Source: an uncultured Anaerolineales bacterium (lineage in GTDB: Bacteria; Chloroflexota; Anaerolineae; CG2-30-64-16). From it: a stretch of DNA of 64,000 nt. The stretch is taken from positions 1,205 through 65,204 of the forward strand of contig CAZELR010000002.1 in NCBI GenBank assembly GCA_964513075.1, in the 5' to 3' direction. The notes under the pieces are model-generated. The model was not told the DNA's origin, ran no database searches, and saw only the letters and a program-made list of their open reading frames with translations. Below are positions 1,042-64,000 of this stretch, piece after piece (positions within the stretch are counted from its first letter, which is position 1; each line of letters begins with the position of its first letter). Position numbers and translations under genes: made by a program.

Positions 1042-2826
1042 CTATCGGATGTGCCCAAGCGCATCCGATACTAGTGCTTCCGGTACTCCATCTACCATCT
1101 CGACCCGTCCGATATCGCGTATTACCACGAAGCGCAGGCTGCGGCCGCGGCGTTTCTTGTCCGTGCCCATCGCGGCCAGCGCTGCGTTCGGGTCGAAGGA
1201 GTAGCGGACCGGCAGGCCGTGGCGTTCGACCGCGCTGCGGATCTTTTCGGGCAGGTCAATCGCACACAGCCCCAGGCTCGCGCTGAGCTCGGCCGCGGCC
1301 ACCAGCCCCAGGCCCACCCCCTCGCCATGGCGCAGCGTGAACCCCGAGATGAGCTCCAGCGCGTGGCCGAAGGTGTGCCCCAGGTTCAGCCACGCCCGGT
1401 CGCCGGCCTCGAACGGGTCGCGTTCCACGATGTCAGCCTTGACCCGGACCGCGGCGGCGATCATGCTGACCATGTCGGGTGGCTTTGCGTGGTGCGTATT
1501 GTGGCGACCTGCGGGTCGTGATGCGTATTGCGTGTTGCGTGTTGCGTGTTGCGTCTCTTTTTCCGGACTCGGGGCTTCAGCCGGTTTCTCGGGGCAGCGG
1601 GAACAACCGGCTAAAGCCTCGATTCCGGTGTCCAGGCGGTCGAAGAGCTCCGGATCGCCGATGATGGCGGTCTTGATGATCTCGGCCATGCCGGAGCGCA
1701 ATTCGACGCCTGGCAGGGTGGCCAGCAGGTCGGGATCGATCAGCACCAACGCCGGCTGTTTGAACGCGCCGACCAGGTTCTTCCCCTCGGGCAGGTCCAC
1801 GCCCGTCTTGCCGCCCACACTGGAGTCCACCATCGCCAGCAGGCTGGTTGGGATCTGCACGAACGGCACGCCGCGCAGCCACGTGGCGGCCGTGAACCCT
1901 GCCATGTCACCGACCACGCCGCCGCCCAGCGCGATCACCGGCTCGTTGCGCGCCAACTTGGCGGCTGTCAGTTGGGCATACAGGCCGGCCATCGTGGCCA
2001 ACGTCTTGTGCTGCTCGCCGTCCGGAACCTCGCAGACCAGCGGCTCGAAGCCGGCCACGACAAGCGATGTGCGCAGCGTCTCCAGGTGATATTGTCCGAC
2101 CGTCGGGTTGGTGATCACCGCGCAGCGGCCCGGGGGCAGGCCGGCCTCGACGATGTGGCGTCCTGCTTGTCTTAGGACCCCGCCCGCGATGAGGACCGCG
2201 TAGCCAGACGAAGGACGAACGACGGACGACGAACGATGGATGACGGACGACGAATCGGCTCCTTCGTTCTTCGTCTTTCGTCTTTCGTCTCGTATGACGA
2301 GGCAGTGCCCGCCCTCGGGCAACCCCGCGACAATACCCAGCACCCGCTCGGCGGCCGCGGCGATGGTCAGGTTGCCGGTGTCCAGGTGATGCGGTATGGC
2401 GGCGTAGGCATCGGCGCGCTGCGCGAGGAGGGCCCGGATGCGCGCCAGGCGGTCGCCTCCGGCGAGCATGGGACGGCCGGCGTCATCTCCGACGCGGCGT
2501 AGGATCACCTCGGGCGCGGCGTCGAGGCAGATCACCGTGCCTCCAGCCGCCAGCGCCTCCCGGTTGGCCGGATCGATGGCCGCGCCCCCGCCCGTTGCCA
2601 CCACCAGCCCCTGCGGCGCGGCCAGCTCCCGGCAGACGGCGGCCTCCAGCGCCCGAAACGCATCTTCGCCGTCTTCGGCGAAGATGGCCGGGATCGGTTT
2701 GGCGGCGCGTTCTGCGATGACGTCATCGAGGCTCACAAACCGACGTCCCAGCCGCGCGGCCACGACAGGGCCGACGCTGGTCTTGCCGGTGCCCATGAAG
2801 CCGGTGAGGATGATATTTTGTGTCAT
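1042..2826 (-). CDS. aroB: Shikimate kinase fused to 3-dehydroquinate synthase (AroK-AroB, one continuous ORF)
   Basis: N-terminal GFMGTGKTSVG Walker A of shikimate kinase; downstream DHQ synthase motifs (GGGVVGDMAGF, SSVGGKTGVDL, LNLGHTFGHALE); real start MTQNIIL at 2826; the track ORF is extended through an upstream heptamer repeat; two repeat insertions are read in-frame. Confidence 0.8.
   Translation of the reverse strand: MTQNIILTGFMGTGKTSVGPVVAARLGRRFVSLDDVIAERAAKPIPAIFAEDGEDAFRALEAAVCRELAAPQGLVVATGGGAAIDPANREALAAGGTVICLDAAPEVILRRVGDDAGRPMLAGGDRLARIRALLAQRADAYAAIPHHLDTGNLTIAAAAERVLGIVAGLPEGGHCLVIRDERRKTKNEGADSSSVIHRSSSVVRPSSGYAVLIAGGVLRQAGRHIVEAGLPPGRCAVITNPTVGQYHLETLRTSLVVAGFEPLVCEVPDGEQHKTLATMAGLYAQLTAAKLARNEPVIALGGGVVGDMAGFTAATWLRGVPFVQIPTSLLAMVDSSVGGKTGVDLPEGKNLVGAFKQPALVLIDPDLLATLPGVELRSGMAEIIKTAIIGDPELFDRLDTGIEALAGCSRCPEKPAEAPSPEKETQHATRNTQYASRPAGRHNTHHAKPPDMVSMIAAAVRVKADIVERDPFEAGDRAWLNLGHTFGHALELISGFTLRHGEGVGLGLVAAAELSASLGLCAIDLPEKIRSAVERHGLPVRYSFDPNAALAAMGTDKKRRGRSLRFVVIRDIGRVEMVDGVPEALVSDALGHIR
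1487..1555. repeat. Degenerate heptamer tandem array (GTRYTGC units), family C
   Basis: gtgcgtattgtg...gtgatgcgtattgcgtgttgcgtgttgcgtgttgcgt; other arrays at 2843-2882, 6219-6275, 26107-26150 and 44551-44624. Confidence 0.7.
2205..2292. repeat. Imperfect hairpin repeat (GACGAAG units / CTTTCGT units), family A, copy 1
   Basis: Left arm of GACGAAC/GACGGAC units, right arm TTCGTCTTTCGTCTTTCGTC; second copy at 6755-6853. Confidence 0.7.
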
Positions 2827-2885
2827 GATCGAGGACTTTCTGATGTGCTGCGTGTTACGTGGTGCGTATTGCGTATTGCGTGAGA

Positions 2886-5382: not shown

Positions 5383-6283
5383 TTGCTTCTAGCTCCTTTC
5401 TCATCAGTCGGGCAAGACTGCCCGCATCGATTCCTGTCCACAATGCTGCCGCTTGCGCGCCCTGGTGCACCAGCATCCCCAGCCCATCGATGGCTGTGGC
5501 GCCTTGCGACCGGGCCAGCGCCAGCAGCGCGGTGGGCCGGTGATAGATCAGATCGTACACCACCTGGTCCGACCGGAACGCCGCATCCGGCTCCCACGGC
5601 AGCGCATCCCCTGCGTGTAACCCTAAACTGGTCGCGTTGACGATCAGGTCGGCCCAAGGCGCCAGCTTCGGCAAGGCGCCGGGAAACGCATGTGCGCTCA
5701 GCCGGTCAGTCGCATCGGGCAGGGCCGCGCACATTGCTCGACATAATCTATCAGCATGCTCCGGCGTCCGGTTGGCGACGGCCACCTCCGCACCGGCCTC
5801 CAGCAGCGCATAGGCCACCGAGCGTGCCGCGCCGCCAGCGCCGAGGACGATGGCTCGGCGACTTCGCACCCCATGCGCCTGTAAATCCGCCATGAATCCC
5901 GCGCCGTCGGTGTTGTCGCCCAACAGTGAGCCATCGGCCCGCACGATAAGGGTGTTCACAGCCCCCGCCGCCTGCGCCATCGGCGTCAGTTCGTCTAGGA
6001 AGGGCATGACCGCCTGCTTGTGCGGCACGGTAACATTGGCTCCTGCGAAGCCAAGCGCAGCCAGCCCGGCCACAGCCTCGCCCACGCGTTCCGGCGCCAC
6101 CGGCAGCGGCACATAGACCCAATCCAGTCCTAGCGCCGCATACGCCGCGTTGTGCATCGCCGGGCTCAGGCTGTGGTCCACCGGCCAGCCGAGCAGGCCG
6201 ACCAGGCGGGTTGCGCCCGTGATGCGTGATGCGTGATGCGTGGTGCGTGGTGCGTATTGCGTATTGCGTACTGCTTTAGTCAT
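5363..6283 (-). CDS. aroE: Shikimate dehydrogenase
   Basis: [12 protein letters not shown] and GDNTDGAGF motifs plus an NAD(P) Rossmann fold ([15 protein letters not shown]); the ATG at 6283 overlaps the aroA stop (ATGA); the first ~24 aa are encoded by a heptamer repeat array. Confidence 0.85.
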
Positions 6284-7710
6284 TCGTCCATCGCTGATTC
6301 GTCACTCGCCCACTCGATTTCCGCCCCCAGGGACCTCATCGTCTCCACGAAGCTCGGGAACGAGTCACCGATTGCTTCGGCCCCCCGGACGGTGGTCTGA
6401 CCGCCTGCAACCAGGCCGGCCACCGCGAGGGCCATGGCCAGGCGATGGTCATGGTGGCATTTTACCACAGCACCTCTCAGTTGGGTGGGTCCGGTCACAA
6501 TCATGCCGTCCGGTCGTTCCTCGATAGTCGCGCCCATCTTCCGTAGCTCTGTCGCGACCGAAGCAATGCGGTCCGACTCCTTAACTCGCAGCTCACCGGC
6601 CTCGCGCACGACTGTTACGCCCTCCGCCTGCGTCGCGGCTACGGCGAAGATCGGGAACTCGTCGATCGCACGCACGATCAGGTCGCCGGCGGCTTCTGTG
6701 GCGCGCAGGGCGGCGCCCTGAACGGTGATGTCGGCGATCGGTTCGCCTGTCGCGGATGAAGGACGAAGGACGGACGACGAAGGACGAAGGACGGATGACA
6801 AGGTGCTTTCCTGCGGGTCGGCGCTTTCGTCTTTCGTCTTTTGTCTTTCGTCAGTCACGCACATCTTTGCTCCCATCGCCGCCAGCAGATCATACAGCCC
6901 CGTGCGAGTGGGATTGACGCCGACGCCGGGCAGCCGGATCTCTGAGCCCGGCACGATCGCGGCCGCGACCAGTGGAAACGCGGCGGAGGAGAAATCGGCG
7001 GGGATAGTGATGCCGTCGAGAGGCGCGCGCAATGCTTGCCCGCCGCGCAAGCGAACGGTCAGCTCTTGGGACTCGACGGCCACACCGAAGTCGCGTAGCA
7101 TGCGTTCGGTGTGATCGCGCGATGGTCCCGGCTCGTGAAGGATCGTCTCACCTTCAGCGAACAAGCCCGCCAGCAGGATGGCCGACTTGACCTGAGCACT
7201 GGCGACCGGCAGGCGGTAATCGATGCCCCGCAGGTTGCCGCCCTGGATAGTGAGCGGCGGCAGCCGGCCGCCGTCGCGGCCCAGCACCGTCGCGCCCATC
7301 AGCCGCAGCGGCTCGGCGACCCGGCCCATGGGGCGGCGGCGCAGCGGCTCGGTTCCGGTCAGCACGCTGGTGAACGGCTGCCCTGCCAGGAGCCCGGCCA
7401 GCAGCCGGATGGTAGTGCCCGAGCCGGCGCAGTGCAAAACGTCCTCCGGTTCGGTCAAGCCGTGCAGGCCGCGGCCGCGGATGAGCAGATCGGAGCCGAA
7501 ACCTGTCTTCTGGTCGTCAATGCTCACTCCGAGGGCCTGCATACAGCGCAGCGTCGCCATGCACACCTCCGCCGGCACCCAGCCGCGGATGCGCGTCTCG
7601 CCGTCGGCCAACGCGGCCAGGATGATTGCCCGGTGGGTGATCGATTTGTCGCCCGGCACGGTGGCTTGTCCGCGTAACGGGCCGGAAGGGTGGATGATCA
7701 GGTCTCGCAT
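6280..7710 (-). CDS. aroA: 3-phosphoshikimate 1-carboxyvinyltransferase (EPSP synthase)
   Basis: MRDLIIHPSGPLRGQATVPGDKSITHRA matches the AroA N-terminus; start chosen at ATG 7710, although the track ORF extends to 7770 through a GTTGAAT repeat; contains an in-frame hairpin-repeat insertion. Confidence 0.85.
   Translation of the reverse strand: MRDLIIHPSGPLRGQATVPGDKSITHRAIILAALADGETRIRGWVPAEVCMATLRCMQALGVSIDDQKTGFGSDLLIRGRGLHGLTEPEDVLHCAGSGTTIRLLAGLLAGQPFTSVLTGTEPLRRRPMGRVAEPLRLMGATVLGRDGGRLPPLTIQGGNLRGIDYRLPVASAQVKSAILLAGLFAEGETILHEPGPSRDHTERMLRDFGVAVESQELTVRLRGGQALRAPLDGITIPADFSSAAFPLVAAAIVPGSEIRLPGVGVNPTRTGLYDLLAAMGAKMCVTDERQKTKDESADPQESTLSSVLRPSSSVLRPSSATGEPIADITVQGAALRATEAAGDLIVRAIDEFPIFAVAATQAEGVTVVREAGELRVKESDRIASVATELRKMGATIEERPDGMIVTGPTQLRGAVVKCHHDHRLAMALAVAGLVAGGQTTVRGAEAIGDSFPSFVETMRSLGAEIEWASDESAMDE
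6755..6853. repeat. Family A hairpin repeat, copy 2 (inside aroA)
   Basis: gaaggacgaaggacggacgacgaaggacgaagg ... ctttcgtctttcgtcttttgtctttcgtc. Confidence 0.7.
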
Positions 7711-7726
7711 GGTGAGTACCGTATGT

Positions 7727-8605
7727 TCAATGTTGAATGTTGAGTGTCGAACGTTGAATGCGGTGATCATGGGCGCGCGTCAGGGTTGTCCGCAGTGTGG
7801 GCTCGTCCTCTGCTGCCAGTGATTCACGCAAGCCTGCGAGCTGCGCCGCATAGGCGTCCAGCCAGTCCAGCACGGCCGAACGATTGGTCAGCAGGATGTC
7901 CAGCATCATGTCCACGTCGCTGGCGGCCAGGCGGGTGGTGTCGCGGTAGCCGGATGCTGCCAGCGACCGGGCTAACGGATCATCGGCGGTCGAGACGGTG
8001 TTGACCAGCGCGGCCGCGACCGCGTACGGCAGATGACTGATGGCTGCCACGGCCCGATCGTGCGCGGCCGGGTGCAGGATGACCGGCCGTGCACCGACCG
8101 CCTCTACTAACGCGCGGGCCTGGGCCAGCGCAGCGCCCGATGTCCGCGACAGGGGACAGAGAACAAAGGTCTTGTTGCGGTAGAGCCCCGCCTCAGCCGC
8201 CGCGAACCCGGCTAGCTCCTTGCCGCACATGGGATGTCCGCCCACAGGCTGCAATTCTGGGGGCAGGTTTGCTAGCGCCGCACAAATCTCGACTTTGGTG
8301 CTGCCCAGGTCGAGCACCAGCGCGCCGGGCCTGGCGGCGCGGCCCACCTCCGGCAGTTGGCGCAGGATCGTGCGGGCCGGCGTGGCGAGCACGATCACAT
8401 CAGCGTCTGCCGCGCCCTCAGCCAGGTCGGTCGTGCCAAAATCAATTGCGCCGGCCTCAAGCGCCGCGCCGAGCGTCTCTTGCCTGCGCGCGACGCCGAC
8501 GATGCGTTGAACGCCGTCCCCGGAACCTTCAGCCTCCCGCAGCGCCAGCGCCAGCGATCCCCCCATCAGTCCAAGCCCCACGATGCACACAGTCGGCAAG
8601 TTCAT
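7727..8605 (-). CDS. tyrA: Prephenate/arogenate dehydrogenase
   Basis: N-terminal Rossmann fold IVGLGLMGGSLALAL; TyrA-family length and layout; lies in the aro operon between the DAHP synthase and aroA. Confidence 0.8.
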   Translation of the reverse strand: MNLPTVCIVGLGLMGGSLALALREAEGSGDGVQRIVGVARRQETLGAALEAGAIDFGTTDLAEGAADADVIVLATPARTILRQLPEVGRAARPGALVLDLGSTKVEICAALANLPPELQPVGGHPMCGKELAGFAAAEAGLYRNKTFVLCPLSRTSGAALAQARALVEAVGARPVILHPAAHDRAVAAISHLPYAVAAALVNTVSTADDPLARSLAASGYRDTTRLAASDVDMMLDILLTNRSAVLDWLDAYAAQLAGLRESLAAEDEPTLRTTLTRAHDHRIQRSTLNIQH

Positions 8606-8702
8606 TATTTCCGCCTCACAAGGTTTCCCCCTGGCTCGGTCAGAGACCGGCCAGAGCGAACTGCTCCCCTGCTCCCTTTCTCCCCTGCTCCCCCGCTCCC
8701 CC

Positions 8703-9716
8703 TCACAACGTCCTTCCCACCGCCGGCGCCAGCATGCGCAGCTCGCGCACCAGCTCGGCGAAGCGTTCCGGCTTCAGCGATTGAGCGCCGTCTGAGAGCG
8801 CCTGCGCCGGATGCGGGTGCACCTCGATGATCAAACCGTCGGCACCGGCCGCAATGCAGGCCTTGGACGTGGGTGGGATCAGTTCCCATTTGCCTGTGGC
8901 GTGACTCGGATCCGCAAAGACCGGCAGGTGCGTCCACTGCTTGAACAGCGCGATGGCGTTGATGTCCAGCGTGTTGCGCGTGGCGGTCTCGAAGGTGCGG
9001 ACGCCGCGTTCGCACAGCATGACGTTGCGGTTGCCTCCGCTGAGGATGTACTCTGCCGACATCAACGTCTCCTGGATGGTGCCCATCATGCTGCGCTTCA
9101 GGAACGCCGGCGTGCGTGTCTTGCCGATAGCTGCCAACAGCGGAAAGTTCTGCGCGTTGCGGGCGCCGATCTGAAAGATATCGGTGTATTTCCCGACCAG
9201 CGGCACGGCCTCAGGAGACATCACCTCGGTGATGATGGGCAACCCGGTGGCTTCGCGCGCTTCGGCCAGGATCTCCAGGCCCTCTTCACCCAGCCCTTGA
9301 AACGCGTAGGGCGATGAACGGGGCTTGAACGCACCGCCGCGCAAGATGTCGGCGCCGGCCTCCTTCACCGCATACGCGGTCTCCAGAAGTTGGCTTTTGC
9401 TTTCCACCGAACAGGGCCCCGCCATGATGACCAATCGAGGGCCGCCGATCGTGACCCCGCGCACGTCGAAGACGGTGTCATCCGGGTGAAAGTCGCGGCT
9501 TGCCAGCTTGAACGGCTGCAGGATGCGTACAACCTGCTCGACGCCGGCGAGCATCTCGAAGTTGTGTGATTGGATGGGCCGGTCGTCGCCGACCACGCCG
9601 ATGATCGTGCGCTCGGTGCCCTGGGACAGATGCGCGTGGTAGCCAAATGCCTCTACCTGTGTTACTACGGCATCGATGTCGCTCGCCGTAGCGCCGTGTC
9701 TCATAACGATAATCAT
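8703..9716 (-). CDS. 3-deoxy-7-phosphoheptulonate (DAHP) synthase, type I-beta with N-terminal ferredoxin/ACT-like regulatory domain
   Basis: Collinear with the Thermotoga-type DAH7PS: [10 protein letters not shown]...GPCSVES...[13 protein letters not shown]...IGARNAQNF...DPSHATG. Confidence 0.9.
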
Positions 9717-32366: not shown

Positions 32367-32798
32367 GGAGCGAGGCGCCCGGGGTGTCTTGCCTCTTCTC
32401 TGAGGTTTGCGCCCTGAAAAAAGTTGTGCTAGGATAACCCAGCAGAACCCTGCCGTGCTCGTGATGTTCCAACAGCGTTTTGAGCCAACATGAATACAAA
32501 GGGAGCTGGACATCCCGGCCGGAGATGCAATAGCTGCGCACGCCGCTTCGTGTGACGTGCGTCTTAGCAAAGCAGAACTGACCGGCAAGGCACCCACCTG
32601 CGAAAGCAGGTTCAAAACAGTCGAGCACACGGCACAGCGGGGGACTCAGAATATAAACGGCCATTTGGGAATGCCCAGATGGCCGTTTTGAGTTTTGTAA
32701 AACCCTTGACATAGCCTCTCGGATTGTGCTATTCTTGATCCAACAGCCGTCCGTGCTGGTGCCGACCGGCCGATTCCTAGTCTTAATCGAGGAACCCT

Positions 32799-44483: not shown

Positions 44484-44550
44484 GCATCACGCACCACGAG
44501 ATTCTTCGCCCTGCGGCCATCTGCGGATGGTCGGCGCTCAGAATGACATG

Positions 44551-44624
44551 CACTACGCACCGCGCACCACGCAATACGCAGTACGCAATACGCAGTACGC
44601 AATACGCAGTACGCAATACGCTAC
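44551..44624. repeat. Heptamer/14-mer tandem array (ACGCAATACGCAGT x3-4), family C
   Basis: Intergenic between the DUF4037-like gene and mmdB. Confidence 0.7.
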
Positions 44625-48316: not shown

Positions 48317-48402
48317 GGAGAGGTCGCATAGTTGGCCTAGTGCGCGCGTCTCGAAAACGCGTATCCCGGAAGGGATCGTGGGTTCGAATCCCACCCTCTC
48401 CG
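48317..48402 (+). tRNA. tRNA-Ser (anticodon CGA)
   Basis: Cloverleaf with GGAGAGG/CCTCTCC acceptor stem, anticodon loop CTCGAAA, long variable arm, GTGGGTTCGAATCCCAC T-arm. Confidence 0.85.
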
Positions 48403-48604: not shown

Positions 48605-48694
48605 GGAGAGGTCGCATAGCTTGGCCTAGTGCGCACGACTGGAAATCGTGTATCCCGAAAGGGATCGAGGGTTCAAATCCCTCCCTCTCCGCCA
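48605..48694 (+). tRNA. tRNA-Ser (anticodon GGA), CCA encoded
   Basis: Same acceptor stem, anticodon loop CTGGAAA, long variable arm, GAGGGTTCAAATCCCTC T-arm, 3' GCCA; TTATAAT about 12 nt upstream. Confidence 0.85.
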
Positions 48695-50647: not shown

Positions 50648-50928
50648 GTGCGGTCGTGCTAAACGGGGAGCTAGCGGTGCCTTGTAACCCGCAATCCGCT
50701 ATAGCGGGGTCGAAGTCCCTTCTTGAGGGCCTGCGGTCAGCGGGACTGCTTGGCAGGTAAGCGTGGATGGTTGGGTCCTGTGCGGCGGGGGCCTGTGAAA
50801 CTGGTCAGGACCGGAAGGTAGCAGCCATAAGCGGTCACCCTCGGGTGCCACGGGGTTGCCTGGCCTGAGCAAGCCTGTCCGGCAAGCCAAGTGACGAGGA
50901 TCGAAAAAGGGTGCACGACCAGCACTCA
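50648..50928 (+). ncRNA. ffs: Signal recognition particle RNA, long (Bacillus-type, about 280 nt)
   Basis: Conserved domain IV sequence GGTCAGGACCGGAAGGTAGCAGCC; 5' tgcggtcgtgc pairs with 3' gcacgaccagca (closing helix); TTGACA-17 promoter just upstream. Confidence 0.7.
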
Positions 50929-58464: not shown

Positions 58465-61317
58465 TTACTCTACAAACACAATCACTTCCGCGCTCCGCAC
58501 CTCCTGCCCATCCGCCAGGCGCGCGATAGCCTGGAAGGTGTGTTGGCCCTTGACTAACGTCCACCAGGCGGTGTGCTCCGGACCCGGCGCAGGGGCCAGG
58601 GGTGCGCCGTCGGCCCAGAGAACGATCGTGCCATCCAGGCCCGGCGCCGCCAACGCAGTGATCGGGATCGCCTGCGCGCTGAGCGGCAGCCCCGGGTTGA
58701 TGCGATAGGTGCGGTTGGGATCAGGGCTGGTCAGTCGAAGGTTAAAGGTTGAAGGTTGAAGGTCGGATGCTCGGTTTTGGATTTTGGATGGCACAGTTTC
58801 CAGTCCGCCATCCGCCATCTGCCATCTGCCGTCTGCCAGTTGCGGGATGTTGTTGGCTCGGGCCCAAGCCTGGTATGTGGGCGGAAGCTGCCAGATCGTC
58901 TGCGGTGCGACGTGTTGGGGTGGGGTCGTCTCGTCAGCGGGCTGGCCGGTGCGGGTGTCGATCAGTACGCGCAGGTGCGAGCGGTCGACCTCGGTGGGTT
59001 CCGTCCCCGCGATGAACCATTCCAGGCGGCGTTGGGGGCAGGGGATGGTGGATGGTTGACGTCGGGGGTTGGATGTTGGATCTTGTAGGCTGCCGCTGCC
59101 CTGCACCCCTGCACCCTTGCTCCCCTGCTCCCCTGCTTGCATCGGCAGCAGCCCCGAGTCCGCGCACACCTCCACCTGCACCAGGCCGTCGGGGATCTCG
59201 AAATCGCTGGCGGGGATATCGCGCAGCACTGCGAGCATGAAGTCGCGCCAGATGGGGCCGGCGCCGCTGATGCCGCTGACATCCTTCATGGGTGTGTTGT
59301 CCGCGTTGCCCACCCAGACGCCGGCGACCACTGCCGGTGTGTAGCCCACGGTCCAGTTATCGCGCCAGTCGGTGGAGGTGCCGGTCTTGGCCGCGGCCGG
59401 CCGGCCCAGCTCTAGCACGTTGCCCCGCCCGAACGCCGGCAGCCGCGCGTTGTTGTCGCTGAGGATGTCGGTAATCAGGTAGGCGACGCGGGGATCCAGG
59501 GCCATGGTTGAAGGTTGAAGGTTGAAGGTTGAAAGATCTGAACCTTTAACCTTCAACCTTTCAACGTGTGACCCGCTCTCGTAGATCGTCTCGCCATCCA
59601 AACTCTCCACCCGCTCAATAGCGTAGGGCCTGACGCGCTGGCCGCCGTTGGCGAATGCGGCGTAGGCCGCGGTCAAATCGAGCAGCCGCACCTCGCCGCC
59701 GCCGAGGGTCAACGATAGACCGTAATGGGTTGAAGGTTCAAGGTTCAAGGTTGAAGGTTGACTCGCGGATGTGGACTGCGAAGCATCAGCCTGTGCCCCC
59801 TTGCCCACTGCCCCCTGATCACTGTCCCCTGACCCCTGACGACTGACCACTGACCGCCGTCCACTGCCCTCTGCTTCCCACGGAATCCCCAGCCGCGCGG
59901 CCTGCTCGACCAGTGCGTCGATGCCGATGTGGTCCAGGGTGATCACGGCGGGAATATTGTAGGAATTGGCCAGCGCGGCGCGCACCGAGACGGGGCCGTG
60001 GTAGATCCGGTCGTAATTGTTGGGGACATACGGCTCGCCTTCAGCGGTCAGAAAGGCGGTTCGCAAGTCGGCGATCACTGTGGCCGCGGTCCAGGGCGCC
60101 TGGCCAACTGCCCGGCTGCGTTCGGGGTCCAGCGCGGCCGCGTAGGTGAGCGGTTTGATGGCGGAGCCGGGCTGGCGGAGGCTGAGGCTGGCATTGACCG
60201 CGCCGCTGATCGCCGGGGCGAAATAATCCGGGCTGCCCACCATGGCCAGCACCGCGCCGGTAGCGGGATCGACCGCCACTAATGCGGCGTTCTCGGCGCG
60301 GCGCGCGGGATCGGCGGCCGCGTCACACGTCACGCCGGGGACCGCGTTGGGAAGCGACGCGCAGGGGCGGAGCTGTGCCAGCCGGCGCTGTACGGCATCT
60401 TCGGCCGCCTGCTGCCAGTCGAGGTCAAGAGTGGTGGTTACCCGCAGGCCGCCGAGGCTCAGTTGCTCTGCAGATAGCAGCGATTCAAGTTGGCCCTGCG
60501 CCCACATCACGAAGTGCGGGGCGGCGATCGGAAAGGGGGTGCCGGCATAGGCCAGGCGTTCCCTTTTTGCGTCCTGAGCTTGGCCTGGAGTAAGGTACCC
60601 TTGCTCGATCATCAGCCTCAGCACCGTGGCCTGCCGCTCCTGCGCGATCTCCGAGTTTTCGATGGGATTGTAGCCGGCCGGGTATTGCGGCAGCCCGGCC
60701 AGCAGCGCGCACTGGGCCAGGTCCAGCTCAGACGCATGCATGCCGAAATAGGCCTGGGCCGCGGCCTCGATCCCCACGGCAAAGTGGCCGTAGTAAGTGT
60801 CGTTCAGGTACAGCGCAAGGATCTCGTCTTTGGAGTACCGCGTCTCCAGCCGCAGCGCCAGCCATGCCTCGCGCAGCTTGCGCCGCAGCGTCTGTTCGTT
60901 TCGCTCTTCGGCAGATAGGTACAACGTGCGCGCAACCTGCTGGGTAAGCGTGCTGGCTCCCGACATGGCGCCGCCGCGCCAATTTTGCCAGGCAGCGCGG
61001 CCGATCGCGATGAGGTCCACGCCCGGATGCTCGTAGAAGCGGCTGTCTTCGGTGGCGACCGTAGCCTGCTGGCAGGCCAGGGGAATCTGATTTAGCGCCA
61101 GCGGTATGTGCTTGCTGCCAGCCGGGTCGATCACTTCGTAGAGCAAGCGATCGTGGCGGTCGGTGATCAGGATGCTGGACCTGGCCGCGGGCGCGTCAAT
61201 GTTGCCCGTTGCCCGGCCCGGGTCGGGCAGGTCGGCCAGCAGGACAAAGTAGCCCAGGAGCGCGCCAGCCAGCAACGCTCCCAGGGGGGCCAGGTGCCAC
61301 CAGCGAACGCGATGCAT
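58465..61317 (-). CDS. pbpC: Penicillin-binding protein 1C-like bifunctional transglycosylase/transpeptidase
   Basis: GT51 motifs (ATEDSRFYEHPGVD, GASTLTQQ, RKLREAWLALRLE); transpeptidase SxxK region (GSAIKP); C-terminal PbpC-like domain; several repeat-encoded in-frame inserts. Confidence 0.85.
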   Translation of the reverse strand: MHRVRWWHLAPLGALLAGALLGYFVLLADLPDPGRATGNIDAPAARSSILITDRHDRLLYEVIDPAGSKHIPLALNQIPLACQQATVATEDSRFYEHPGVDLIAIGRAAWQNWRGGAMSGASTLTQQVARTLYLSAEERNEQTLRRKLREAWLALRLETRYSKDEILALYLNDTYYGHFAVGIEAAAQAYFGMHASELDLAQCALLAGLPQYPAGYNPIENSEIAQERQATVLRLMIEQGYLTPGQAQDAKRERLAYAGTPFPIAAPHFVMWAQGQLESLLSAEQLSLGGLRVTTTLDLDWQQAAEDAVQRRLAQLRPCASLPNAVPGVTCDAAADPARRAENAALVAVDPATGAVLAMVGSPDYFAPAISGAVNASLSLRQPGSAIKPLTYAAALDPERSRAVGQAPWTAATVIADLRTAFLTAEGEPYVPNNYDRIYHGPVSVRAALANSYNIPAVITLDHIGIDALVEQAARLGIPWEAEGSGRRSVVSRQGSGDSDQGAVGKGAQADASQSTSASQPSTLNLEPSTHYGLSLTLGGGEVRLLDLTAAYAAFANGGQRVRPYAIERVESLDGETIYESGSHVERLKVKGSDLSTFNLQPSTMALDPRVAYLITDILSDNNARLPAFGRGNVLELGRPAAAKTGTSTDWRDNWTVGYTPAVVAGVWVGNADNTPMKDVSGISGAGPIWRDFMLAVLRDIPASDFEIPDGLVQVEVCADSGLLPMQAGEQGSKGAGVQGSGSLQDPTSNPRRQPSTIPCPQRRLEWFIAGTEPTEVDRSHLRVLIDTRTGQPADETTPPQHVAPQTIWQLPPTYQAWARANNIPQLADGRWQMADGGLETVPSKIQNRASDLQPSTFNLRLTSPDPNRTYRINPGLPLSAQAIPITALAAPGLDGTIVLWADGAPLAPAPGPEHTAWWTLVKGQHTFQAIARLADGQEVRSAEVIVFVE
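58735..58848. repeat. GGTTGAA heptamer array plus ggattttggatgg and ccgccatctgcc mini-arrays, family B, inside pbpC
   Basis: Related copies at 59506-59566 (perfect hairpin), 59727-59762 and 62748-62862, and near 7723-7760 and 39721-39740. Confidence 0.7.
59506..59566. repeat. Family B perfect hairpin (ggttgaagg x4 / ccttcaacc) inside pbpC
   Basis: ggttgaaggttgaaggttgaaggttgaaagatctgaacctttaaccttcaacctttcaac. Confidence 0.75.
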
Positions 61318-62541: not shown

Positions 62542-64000
62542 TCAGTGGACAAGCTTACCGGATTCCGGCTCGGCCGCAACCAAATCGGCGCCACTGGCGT
62601 CTGTCCAAAGCCGGCGCATCCCCTCCGACGTTGCCAGCAGTTCATCCAGCGTGCCTTCGGCTTCCACGCGGCCATCCAGCAGCACGATGATGCGATCGGC
62701 CCGGCGCAGCACCGCGCGGCGGTGGGAGACGGCAAGAACGGTCGCGGGGGTTGAAGGTTGGAAAGTTGAAGGCGCAAGGTCGTCATCACCCCCCGAGCCT
62801 TCATTTCCGTCTTTAAACCCTGAACCTTCGACCTTAAACTTTGAACCTTGAACCTTCAACCCCACGCGCTCCCACAGGATCTCCTCCGTCTGCACGTCCA
62901 GCGCGCTGGAGAGGTCATCGAAGACCAACAGCTCAGGCGCGCGCGCGAACATGCGCGCCGCGGCTGCGCGCTGCACCTGGCCGCCGCTCAGCCGCACCCC
63001 GCGCGGTCCGACGAGGGTGTCCAGGCCATGCTCCAACGTGGCGATGTCGGGTTCCAGCACCGCGCGCCAGATGGCATACTGTATCTCACCCTCTATCCCC
63101 ATCAGTACATTCTCTCGCAGCGTCGCGCTGAACAGGCGCGGCACCTGGGCGGTGTAGGCGGCGCACGGCCGGCCCCGCGGCGGCGAAGCCAACAGCGCGG
63201 CCGGATCGACCACAGGCTCGCCGTCCCACACGATCTCGCCCGCGTCGCGGGCCAGCAGGCCCAGCACGGCGCGCAGCAGCGTCGTCTTGCCCGAGCCGAT
63301 CTGCCCGGTGATGACCACGAAGCTGCCGCGGGGCACGCTGAAGGTGACGTCCCGCACGCCGCGATCGGCACCTGGATGGAAACAGGTGAGGTGGCGCACT
63401 TCCAGGAGGGGCGGCAGAGGCCCAGTTCCGGGAGAAGACGGCGTCACCCTGAGCGAGTCTGCGGCGCAAGGTTGGCTGCGGCTCAAGCTCAGCGAAGGGT
63501 CTTGTTGGCCGGGTTGAGATCCTTCGCTGGGGTCTCGGCGTGACTGCTTTTGGGCCGACAACCCGCTCAGGGTGACTTTCTGGTGGGTCATGGGGTGATG
63601 TTCCACCAGTACCTCCGGCGGCTCATCCGGGATCAGTTCGACCAGGCGGCTGATGGCCACCTCCTGCTGCTTGATGTCGCCGACGAAGCTGCCCAGGTAC
63701 GACGGTAGGTCGGTGGTGAACCACAGGTAGTAGGTGAACAGCGCAAAGTCACCCACGGTGAACGCACCCTGTGTCATCGCCTGCCCCGCCAGCAGCAGCA
63801 TCACCCCAACACCGACCACGACTGCGATGCTGTTCATAGAGAAGGCGAGCTCTTCCAGCACCGCGGCCCGGATCGTGGCCCGGCTGCGCGTCTCGGCCAG
63901 CCGGCTGAAATGGGCGACGGTGTGCGTCTCGGCGCCGGCCACTTTCACCGCCTGGACCGCGCCGAACAGCTCGGCTAGGAAGCCGATCACCGCGTCCCCG
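62542..64000 (-). CDS. ABC exporter, fused permease/ATPase; N-terminus outside the window
   Basis: Walker [10 protein letters not shown], signature LSGGQVQR, Walker B LLVFDD; ORF remains open at the window edge; carries a repeat-encoded in-frame insert before the H-loop. Confidence 0.8.
62748..62862. repeat. Family B hairpin with large loop inside the ABC transporter gene
   Basis: ggttgaaggttggaaagttgaagg ... ccttcgaccttaaactttgaaccttgaaccttcaacc. Confidence 0.7.

Follow-up and report, generated by a model that had tools for sequence, protein, structure and literature searches.

Does the reading frame in which a repeat is translated inside an essential enzyme tell us that selection has chosen that frame? 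The question arises in a 64,000-nucleotide (nt) stretch of DNA (hereafter, the window; all coordinates count from its first letter), probably from the Anaerolineae within the Chloroflexota, the lineage names that relatives of its AroA protein carry in their sources (Anaerolineae or Chloroflexi). The aroA gene of the window, encoding 5-enolpyruvylshikimate-3-phosphate (EPSP) synthase, is interrupted by a hairpin built of tandem heptamers, and a second hairpin of the same unit family, family A, lies in the fused aroK-aroB gene. A preliminary description of the window read the frame common to the two copies as a sign that one reading frame of the element is selectively tolerated. We find that the shared frame is arithmetic and not selection: a heptamer array gives one cyclic peptide whichever frame is read, and what selection has visibly shaped is the composition of the coding strand.

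The presence of a family-A hairpin in-frame in EPSP synthase, as first described, is confirmed. The minus-strand aroA open reading frame (ORF; 6280..7770) crosses the element without a stop, giving VTDERQKTKDESADPQESTLSSVLRPSSSVLRPSSATGEP; the Pfam domain EPSP_synthase (PF00275) spans AroA residues 7-458, with the catalytic motifs LRVKESDR and DHRLAM kept in the alignment; and residues 289-320 are a true insertion, left out of the alignment of solved EPSP synthases (3rmt, 3tr1) with residues 4-288 and 321-465. Opposite the ENER turn motif of those solved structures, AroA has TDER, which forms the first repeat unit; the first unit of arm 1 overlaps native D-E-R codons. An AlphaFold model of AroA with 30 homologs has a confident two-domain fold (predicted template modeling score, pTM, 0.82), in which the predicted local distance difference test score (pLDDT) drops below 50 at residues 289-317, between the strands at 281-286 and 324-330. 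The insert is accordingly modeled as a disordered excursion at the tip of a surface beta-hairpin.

At the DNA level, the element (6754-6852, 99 nt) consists of two tandem heptamer arrays facing each other as an inverted repeat of the form (GACGAAR)n-loop-(YTTCGTC)n. On the + strand, (GGACGAA)n with variants (6754-6803) is followed by about 19 nt of unique sequence and then by (CTTTCGT)4 (6823-6852). Tandem Repeats Finder recovers both arms at period 7, with 5.7 copies of GGACGAA (6754-6793/6758-6803) and 4.1 copies of CTTTCGT (6824-6852); arm 2, in aroA sense, is longer than arm 1, which leaves its outer units unpaired. A hairpin of roughly 40 bp can form in each DNA strand or in the corresponding RNA. 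The + strand RNA forms one long hairpin of -59.5 kcal/mol (z = -5.5, equaled by 0 of 200 shuffles), and the aroA-sense strand folds to -40.3 kcal/mol (z = -2.65); a separate comparison of the strands gave -62 (antisense) vs -40 (sense) kcal/mol. The weaker fold of the sense strand arises because G.U positions on the + strand become A.C on the sense strand.

Because an array of 7-nt units passes through all codon phases every 21 nt, its three frames encode the same cyclic heptapeptide. Ideal arrays of GACGAAG translate to DEGRRTK and those of GACGAAA to DERRKTK, with LRPSSFV and FRLSSFV on the respective complements, and ideal arrays of the family-A unit translate without a stop in all six frames. 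Since the arms are inverted copies, DEGRRTD...LSSFVF is encoded on the opposite strand as well, a peptide visible in a spurious + strand ORF at 6725..7114. Frame equivalence and inverted layout together mean that any family-A read-through must resemble RKTK...SSV..RPSS, the pattern from which a favored frame had been proposed. That proposal also fails when copies are checked for frame and strand bias: of 26 family-A arrays lying inside genes of Chloroflexota, 11 have the purine arm alone on the sense strand, 8 the pyrimidine arm alone and 7 both, and the entry phases are mixed as well (8:2:7).

The two copies had further been called the same element, and this is true of the repeat unit and the orientation; when they are aligned, the loops and arm lengths differ. 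An 18-mer of the unit, GACGAAGGACGAAGGACG, searched with up to 3 mismatches, matches within the window at the aroA and aroKB loci only (12 matches, 0.07 expected). The fused aroK-aroB ORF (1042..2826) lies on the minus strand, like aroA, and its copy falls between the SKI domain, which ends at residue 162, and the earliest Pfam matches of DHQ-synthase type, Fe-ADH_2 (from 213) and DHQ_synthase (from 265); we place it in the first beta-hairpin of AroB. The two genes form one ORF both in the window and in the closest relative with a long contig (L198, 10693-12684), with a junction-region repeat element of a different unit in each, and the aroK-aroB gene called in L198 also continues from the aroC tail.

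If frame is indifferent, strand is not. Genes were called crudely, from stop-to-stop ORFs plus GC3-GC2 (G+C at third and second codon positions), and elements were counted as intragenic when they lay inside long ORFs with coding-type GC3. Several of the intragenic data points are orthologous aroA sites and so are not independent; with that proviso, the T-poor strand is the sense strand in 51 of the 70 intragenic elements of Chloroflexota (51:19, p = 2e-4; T 0.19 vs A 0.26), and in 49 of 69 the sense strand has a G+T fraction under 0.5. The encoded peptides are more hydrophilic than the antisense readings (Kyte-Doolittle -0.94 vs -0.23, p = 4e-4), and the sense reading has half the stop density of the antisense. 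No strand bias appears in 36 intergenic arrays between co-directional genes (18:17), which rules out a transcription-linked mutation bias as the source of the G.U/A.C asymmetry. Selection is thus visible on strand composition, not on frame. Its action on stops can be seen directly. Orientation matters for units that have a stop on one strand, namely GGTTGAA (which contains TGA), CGTGATG and CCACTGA, and in translated arrays of the GGTTGAA family (62760-62862, 59727-59762) units that would otherwise read TGA appear as GGTTCAA or are displaced by a one-base phase shift, direct evidence of stop avoidance.

The same T-poor sense strand explains a folding asymmetry. Of 22 hairpin-like elements inside genes, 18 have an antisense RNA that is more stable than the sense RNA by over 3 kcal/mol, 3 show the opposite and 1 is tied, although these minimum free energy differences are partly compositional; for the insert in one aroA ortholog (L204) the two values are -42.5 vs -14.6 kcal/mol. 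Low-U codons avoid F, L, I and V as well as stops, and any selection for a weaker mRNA hairpin is inseparable from that effect in these data.

Read-through of such arrays is not peculiar to aroA. The window holds 18 arrays of period 7 or 8, of which 13 fall within five genes (aroK-aroB at two sites, aroA, a 1290-aa ORF, a class A penicillin-binding protein [PBP] and an ABC ATPase), and their units belong to at least five families: GACGAAG, TGCGTAT/CGTGATG, GGTTGAA, CCACTGA and the octamer CTGCTCCC. The exact 18-mer GACGAAGGACGAAGGACG occurs at more than 117 genome loci, a lower bound. Among the matches listed, family-A loci are mostly from Chloroflexota, with many in Anaerolineales, Chloroflexia, Caldilineales, Roseiflexaceae and Kouleothrix; others come from Bacteroidota, Acidobacteriota, Planctomycetota, Verrucomicrobiota, Omnitrophota and Nostoc. 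We counted 213 arrays, forming 164 elements, in 427 kb of Chloroflexota DNA from loci selected via the family-A 18-mer, and 70 of these elements (~43%) are intragenic; 411 kb of unselected loci from other taxa, taken as a density control, yielded 9 elements. With an assumed coding density of ~90%, arrays are depleted in genes relative to random insertion, yet read-through is far from rare. A synthetic family-A hairpin peptide, a short and low-complexity query, drew 16 weak matches from a database of 5.8 billion protein sequences, mostly hypothetical ORFs of 60-118 aa. Outside the Chloroflexota, a pure GACGAAG array in the gammaproteobacterial isolate Ferrimonas gelatinilytica (L019, from 4316 onward) contains 74 overlapping 18-mer matches, and the unit has therefore been greatly expanded there as a direct array.

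How stable is the occupation of the aroA site? We compared the best 120 AroA homologs (63-100% identity) and surveyed about 108 for inserts. The segment between NPTRTGL and IDEFPI is 47-48 aa long in homologs without an insert and reaches 103 aa in those that have one, and most of the surveyed homologs have an insert, the length ranging from 0 to ~55 aa and the units coming from at least four families. The commonest type reads GDAETRRHGD...SPRPRVPAS; others read DERRKTK...SSVLRPSS, MDHGPSTVDH...SSIVHRPSS and TRNTQHATRNTQH. In the DNA of nine relatives, eight have a hairpin-type insert at the site, with GACGAAA, ATGGACC/CATCGTC, GACGGCG or the octamer GGAGACAC/GCGTCCCC as units. The insert is lost or reduced in L198, P0005, P0029, P0033 and P0038, with aroA intact. 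A metagenome scan with the AroA alignment gave, among the matches listed, mostly distant AroA sequences (43-57% identity) without inserts; L118 was informative, and the remaining loci supplied the density control mentioned above.

L198 offers the closest comparison, with an AroA of 84% identity, flanks of 87-94% nt identity and the same gene order. Its aroA site retains a remnant of arm 1 only (EEKEQKTKD), and its alignment with the window breaks precisely at the arrays (Table 1). At so small a distance, the differences suggest that arrays were replaced or lost rather than drifting slowly. Gradual in-place drift of units is doubtful as the sole source of family differences, given the unrelated units at the aroB site despite flanks that are 87-94% identical. 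Across the homologs compared, the aroA site is a long-lived landing pad at which arrays turn over fast, being quickly gained, lost and replaced.

A further regularity concerns the order of arrays. Among adjacent arrays in Chloroflexota (L001-L118, L198-L205 and the window), a purine-rich array is followed, 5' to 3', by a pyrimidine-rich one (RY) in 35 cases, the reverse (YR) occurs in 2, and the two like-with-like arrangements (RR+YY) together account for 14 (chi-square vs 1:1:2, p = 3e-12); by symmetry the order is the same on both strands. Pairs without a family-A unit follow it too (RY 11, YR 0, plus 8 Rn and 6 nY, with no opposite cases), and the purine-first order covers true hairpins as well as pairs of unrelated units, both inside genes and between them. 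Other phyla show mostly direct arrangements (RY 9 vs YR 3).

Taking these observations together, we consider the aroA element to be probably a tolerated passenger repeat of the heptanucleotide kind known as short tandemly repeated repetitive (STRR) sequences or long simple sequence repeats (LSSRs), remodeled by slippage and strand switching and filtered by selection to harmless sites and forms. It would be one of a genome-wide set of short heptanucleotide, in some cases octanucleotide, arrays that characterize its Chloroflexota lineage. Arrays would arise and change through replication slippage, the likeness of the arms would be maintained by intrastrand template switching or an equivalent process, and most insertions into genes would be removed by selection. 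Persistence in aroA may have four reasons. The net insertion of 96 nt is a multiple of three; GACGAAR is stop-free and its frames are equivalent, so that slippage by multiples of three units would never break the ORF; the position at the tip of a surface beta-hairpin would let 32 extra disordered, hydrophilic residues leave the fold undisturbed; and the T-poor sense variants GACGAAA/GTCCTTC encode D, E, R, K, T, S and P rather than F, L and V, with A.C mismatches in the mRNA hairpin and G.U pairs on the antisense strand as a probable side effect. For EPSP synthase, the insert would then be a tolerated passenger loop and not a functional module.

Several points weigh against this reading. The neutrality of the insert for the enzyme is something we infer, as is the mechanism that generates the arrays. 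Nearly all insert-bearing relatives have the capacity to form a hairpin at the aroA site despite their different units, and this could reflect selection for structure rather than the youth of the elements. Slippage alone leaves two observations unexplained, the recurrent occupation of the same sites by different unit families and the strong purine-arm-first polarity. The counts themselves come from crude gene calls, from loci chosen by the 18-mer and in part from aroA orthologs that are not independent.

Passive slippage does not predict the purine-first polarity, and Chloroflexota may instead have an active, directional repeat-writing process, an idea to which we give only a small chance. Under it, a DNA break would gain purine-rich heptamers at each of its 3' ends, and joining and fill-in would then yield a purine-first palindrome; the palindrome would itself be fragile, and the same sites, even in aroA and aroB, would be rewritten with new units. 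If this is true, the 7-nt period makes the written product frame-independent and hence unusually survivable inside genes.

It is similarly improbable, in our judgment, that a non-autonomous mobile element, resembling a miniature inverted-repeat transposable element (MITE) or a Rickettsia palindromic element (RPE) and mobilized in trans, struck aroA and aroB independently. Same-unit copies are dispersed in the source genome and in many others, presence and absence vary between close relatives, and in a Caldilineales metagenome-assembled genome (MAG; L092, 7788-7974) whole family-A hairpins plus the spacer CCTGAAATCGGCCCAA are tandemly duplicated as a higher-order repeat, all of which speak for a mobile element. 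Copies share only the 7-nt unit, however, and differ in loops, arm lengths and termini; relatives have unrelated units at the same site; the window has no linked transposase; and neither conserved terminal repeats nor a flanking direct repeat (target-site duplication) is visible at the aroA or aroKB copy, the latter being absent also from the reduced L198 site. Lacking target-site duplication, terminal repeats and a shared core, the MITE version is rejected.

A functional nucleic-acid structure likewise seems unlikely, be it an mRNA element (for ribosome pausing at a sub-domain boundary or for decay control), an antisense RNA, or a DNA cruciform with a role in regulation or recombination. The very stable predicted fold of the + strand, the retention of hairpin potential in eight of nine relatives despite unit turnover, the position of elements at domain or hairpin boundaries and the better folding of antisense RNA in most intragenic elements all speak for it. 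Set against these are the lack of sequence conservation, the loss or reduction of the element in five relatives with aroA intact, and a strand asymmetry that T-poor codon choice explains, that is absent from intergenic transcribed arrays and that leaves the sense mRNA hairpin as the weakened one. Moreover, an Rfam 15 scan at gathering scores gave no covariance-model match at the element, and a promoter/terminator scan found no promoter- or terminator-like signal there (0 terminator-like sites in 6300-7300, both strands), which leaves an intrinsic (rho-independent) terminator and an antisense promoter without support. Least probable is a useful encoded peptide, such as a flexible charged loop or linker aiding solubility, scaffolding or the AroK-AroB fusion. 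In its favor are the hydrophilic, disordered nature of the peptide, the location of sites at the AroKB domain junction and between the domains of dehydroquinate synthase (DHQS), and an analogy with repeat-born disordered regions in Borg elements (PMC9879509), but same-site peptides are unrelated between relatives (DERRKTK..., GDAETRRHGD..., MDHGPSTVDH..., TRNTQH...) and absent in some, and identical peptides occur in unrelated proteins.

Table 1. Features of the aroA element, other repeat arrays of the window, and the state of matching sites in L198.
Feature	Position	Strand	Description	L198
aroA (EPSP synthase), host gene	6280..7710	-	Intact, 476 aa, identical to database protein P0001	
Net insertion vs solved EPSP synthases	6748..6843	-	96 nt, 32 codons, AroA residues 289-320	
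Arm 1, aroA sense	6823..6852	-	(GACGAAA)x4, translated DERQKTKDES	
Central loop/junction	6804..6822		Unique; unrelated to loop of aroKB copy	
Arm 2, aroA sense	6754..6803	-	(GTCCTTC)-type units, ~6.5 copies, translated LSSVLRPSSSVLRPSS	
Second family-A hairpin, in-frame in aroK-aroB fusion (aroB N-terminal site)	2193..2292	-	AroK/AroB junction; translated IRDERRKTKNEGADSSSVIHRSSSVVRPSSGYAV	ACGCAAT array
Composite element, in-frame in aroB	1480..1625	-	(ACGCAAC/ACGCAAT) array + GC-rich palindrome; between DHQ_synthase N and C domains	
PBP array pair, GGTTGAA/TTCAACC hairpin	59503..59561	-	In-frame in transpeptidase domain, HVERLKVKGSDLSTFNLQPST; aroA-like element class, other unit	
PBP in-frame pair of unrelated arrays	58737..58838	-	GAAGGTT... 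then GCCATCT...	
Further PBP array pairs	59043-59140 and 59727-59873	-	In-frame	
GGTTGAA-family hairpin in ABC ATPase	62760..62862	-	In-frame; encoded stretch includes APSTFQPST; GGTTGAA changed to GGTTCAA	
Heptamer array CGTGATG/CGTGGTG/CGTATTG	6216..6276		aroA stop/aroE start boundary	Different unit, GCGAATC
Heptamer array	2845..2883		aroC/aroK boundary	Missing
Octamer array CTGCTCCC	8661..8704		Between DAHP synthase gene and tyrA, in 96-nt spacer	Missing, with whole 96-nt spacer
Heptamer array ATGTTGA	7722..7760		Over tyrA 3' end and aroA 5' end	Conserved
Array inside aroE			None in window	Extra array

The four boundary arrays of the aro operon fall exactly on gene boundaries, and they give alternative N-terminal extensions, such as one of 22 residues on AroE and MITAFNVRHSTFNIEH on AroA. 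A 49-nt stem-loop in the GC-rich palindrome of aroB (1563-1611, minus strand) is inverted relative to L198 (12095-12143), with 96% opposite-strand identity, and is translated both ways (AGCSRCPEKPAE vs AGFSGQREQPAD), an in-frame flip of a hairpin loop in an essential gene. The class A PBP (Transgly + Transpeptidase + BiPBP_C; 58465-61317, minus strand) contains four in-frame pairs of heptamer or octamer arrays within or adjoining its transpeptidase domain, two of them inside the envelope of that domain. A long intergenic array of (ACGCAAT ACGCAGT)n at 44550-44623 runs opposite to the intragenic trend, its complement (UGCGUAU-type), on the strand of the flanking genes, folding to -48 kcal/mol vs -15 for the other strand. 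Rfam matches in the window are confined to a 6S RNA (32444-32647), a large signal recognition particle (SRP) RNA (50654-50918) and two tRNA genes (48317-48402 and 48605-48691), which lie ~290 nt apart and are 88% identical over 73 nt. The window ends carry a 67-nt inverted repeat (36-102 vs 63517-63583, 78% complementary) that may be due to chance or to related coding sequence.

What the locus teaches is that non-triplet repeats can live in essential genes: a stop-free 7-nt unit yields one cyclic heptapeptide in every frame and, in an inverted pair, in both orientations, so only total length and insertion site are left for selection to filter. A shared frame should not be taken as evidence of selection. 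The same property explains odd low-complexity segments (DEGRRTK, LRPSSFV, TQYAIRN, STFNLQP and others) in Chloroflexota proteins, which inflate and blur MAG annotations. The aroA loop, filled with different units in dozens of lineages and with turnover visible at ~90% genome identity, provides a set of natural experiments on a question open since 1990-2007, namely what has made heptanucleotide repeats so over-represented among many bacteria and by what route they originate. The weight of these results rests on frame-independent coding, recurrent rewriting of fixed sites and the polarity rule more than on the single aroA copy.

Among known systems, the nearest in build are the STRR sequences of cyanobacteria, reportedly described by Mazel in 1990, and the LSSRs described by Mrazek in 2007, as summarized in PMC4679880 and PMC4692102. 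Canonical STRR units of heterocystous cyanobacteria are CCCCAGT, TTGGTCA and CAACAGT, from which the units found here (GACGAAG, TGCGTAT, GGTTGAA, CCACTGA, CTGCTCCC) differ. Like STRR sequences and LSSRs, the arrays consist of head-to-tail 7-nt units in several families per genome, dispersed, variable in copy number and scattered across phyla; against the customary minimum of 3-4 head-to-tail copies, the aroA arms have 5.7 and 4.1. STRR sequences and LSSRs are described as mainly intergenic direct arrays, whereas here we see inverted pairs with the purine arm first, many of them read through in essential genes, and instead of a predominantly intergenic location 13 of the 18 window arrays and 70 of the 164 Chloroflexota elements are intragenic. 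Heptanucleotide repeats are described, in the accounts cited, as the most abundant class of long simple sequence repeats in many prokaryotes and as mostly intergenic (PMC4679880, PMC4692102), TAACTGA repeats being a further example (PMC4679880). Chloroflexus aurantiacus has the most satellites in a table of bacteria, including dispersed (GATAGRA)n heptamer satellites (PMC6749651). That satellite survey, together with an unrelated frameshift paper, was all that a literature search for heptanucleotide or heptamer tandem repeats in Chloroflexi returned, and we came across no account of essential enzymes with translated inverted heptamer arrays or of the frame independence of such arrays.

Other repeat classes share single traits with the element. 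Repetitive extragenic palindromic (REP) sequences and bacterial interspersed mosaic elements (BIMEs), and MITEs such as Correia/NEMIS, ERIC and BOX, are also small, dispersed, hairpin-forming and occasionally fused in-frame to ORFs, but they have a consensus, terminal inverted repeats, target-site duplications or an association with REP-associated tyrosine transposases (RAYTs), none of which is seen in the 64 kb of the window; REPs, moreover, are extragenic imperfect palindromes of 20-40 nt, whereas the aroA element is intragenic, ~100 nt long and built of tandem units. Tandem repeats inside Borg ORFs evolve fast and create disordered protein regions (PMC9879509), and the aroA repeats resemble them in adding an intrinsically disordered segment. 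In satellites coding for amino-acid repeats, the unit is usually a multiple of 3 long (PMC6749651); the aroA repeat has a 7-nt unit, and the multiple-of-3 constraint applies to its total length alone. Palindromic amphipathic repeat coding elements (PARCELs), which encode 25-residue protein-domain repeats in surface proteins (PMC2996958), are likewise coding repeats with DNA dyad symmetry, but they are not 7-nt arrays in enzymes.

The closest parallel in behavior is with the RPEs. At ~100 bp, palindromic, forming a long hairpin, in-frame, translated, at a permissive site and with its host gene intact, the aroA element has the general habit of these elements, which Ogata et al. reportedly described in Science in 2000. 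RPEs are presented, in the account cited, as palindromic repeats of ~100-150 bp that lie in-frame in Rickettsia housekeeping genes at permissive positions (PMC10969869). Three differences set them apart: RPE families have a full-length consensus and a conserved peptide, whereas here only the 7-nt unit is common; RPEs are not tandem heptamers, so frame matters for them, whereas here all frames are equivalent; and RPEs are confined to Rickettsia, whereas the host here is a Chloroflexota MAG. The aroA element is not a member of the RPE family; by analogy, it may best be regarded as a Chloroflexota counterpart of RPEs in behavior that is built of heptamers of the STRR/LSSR type.

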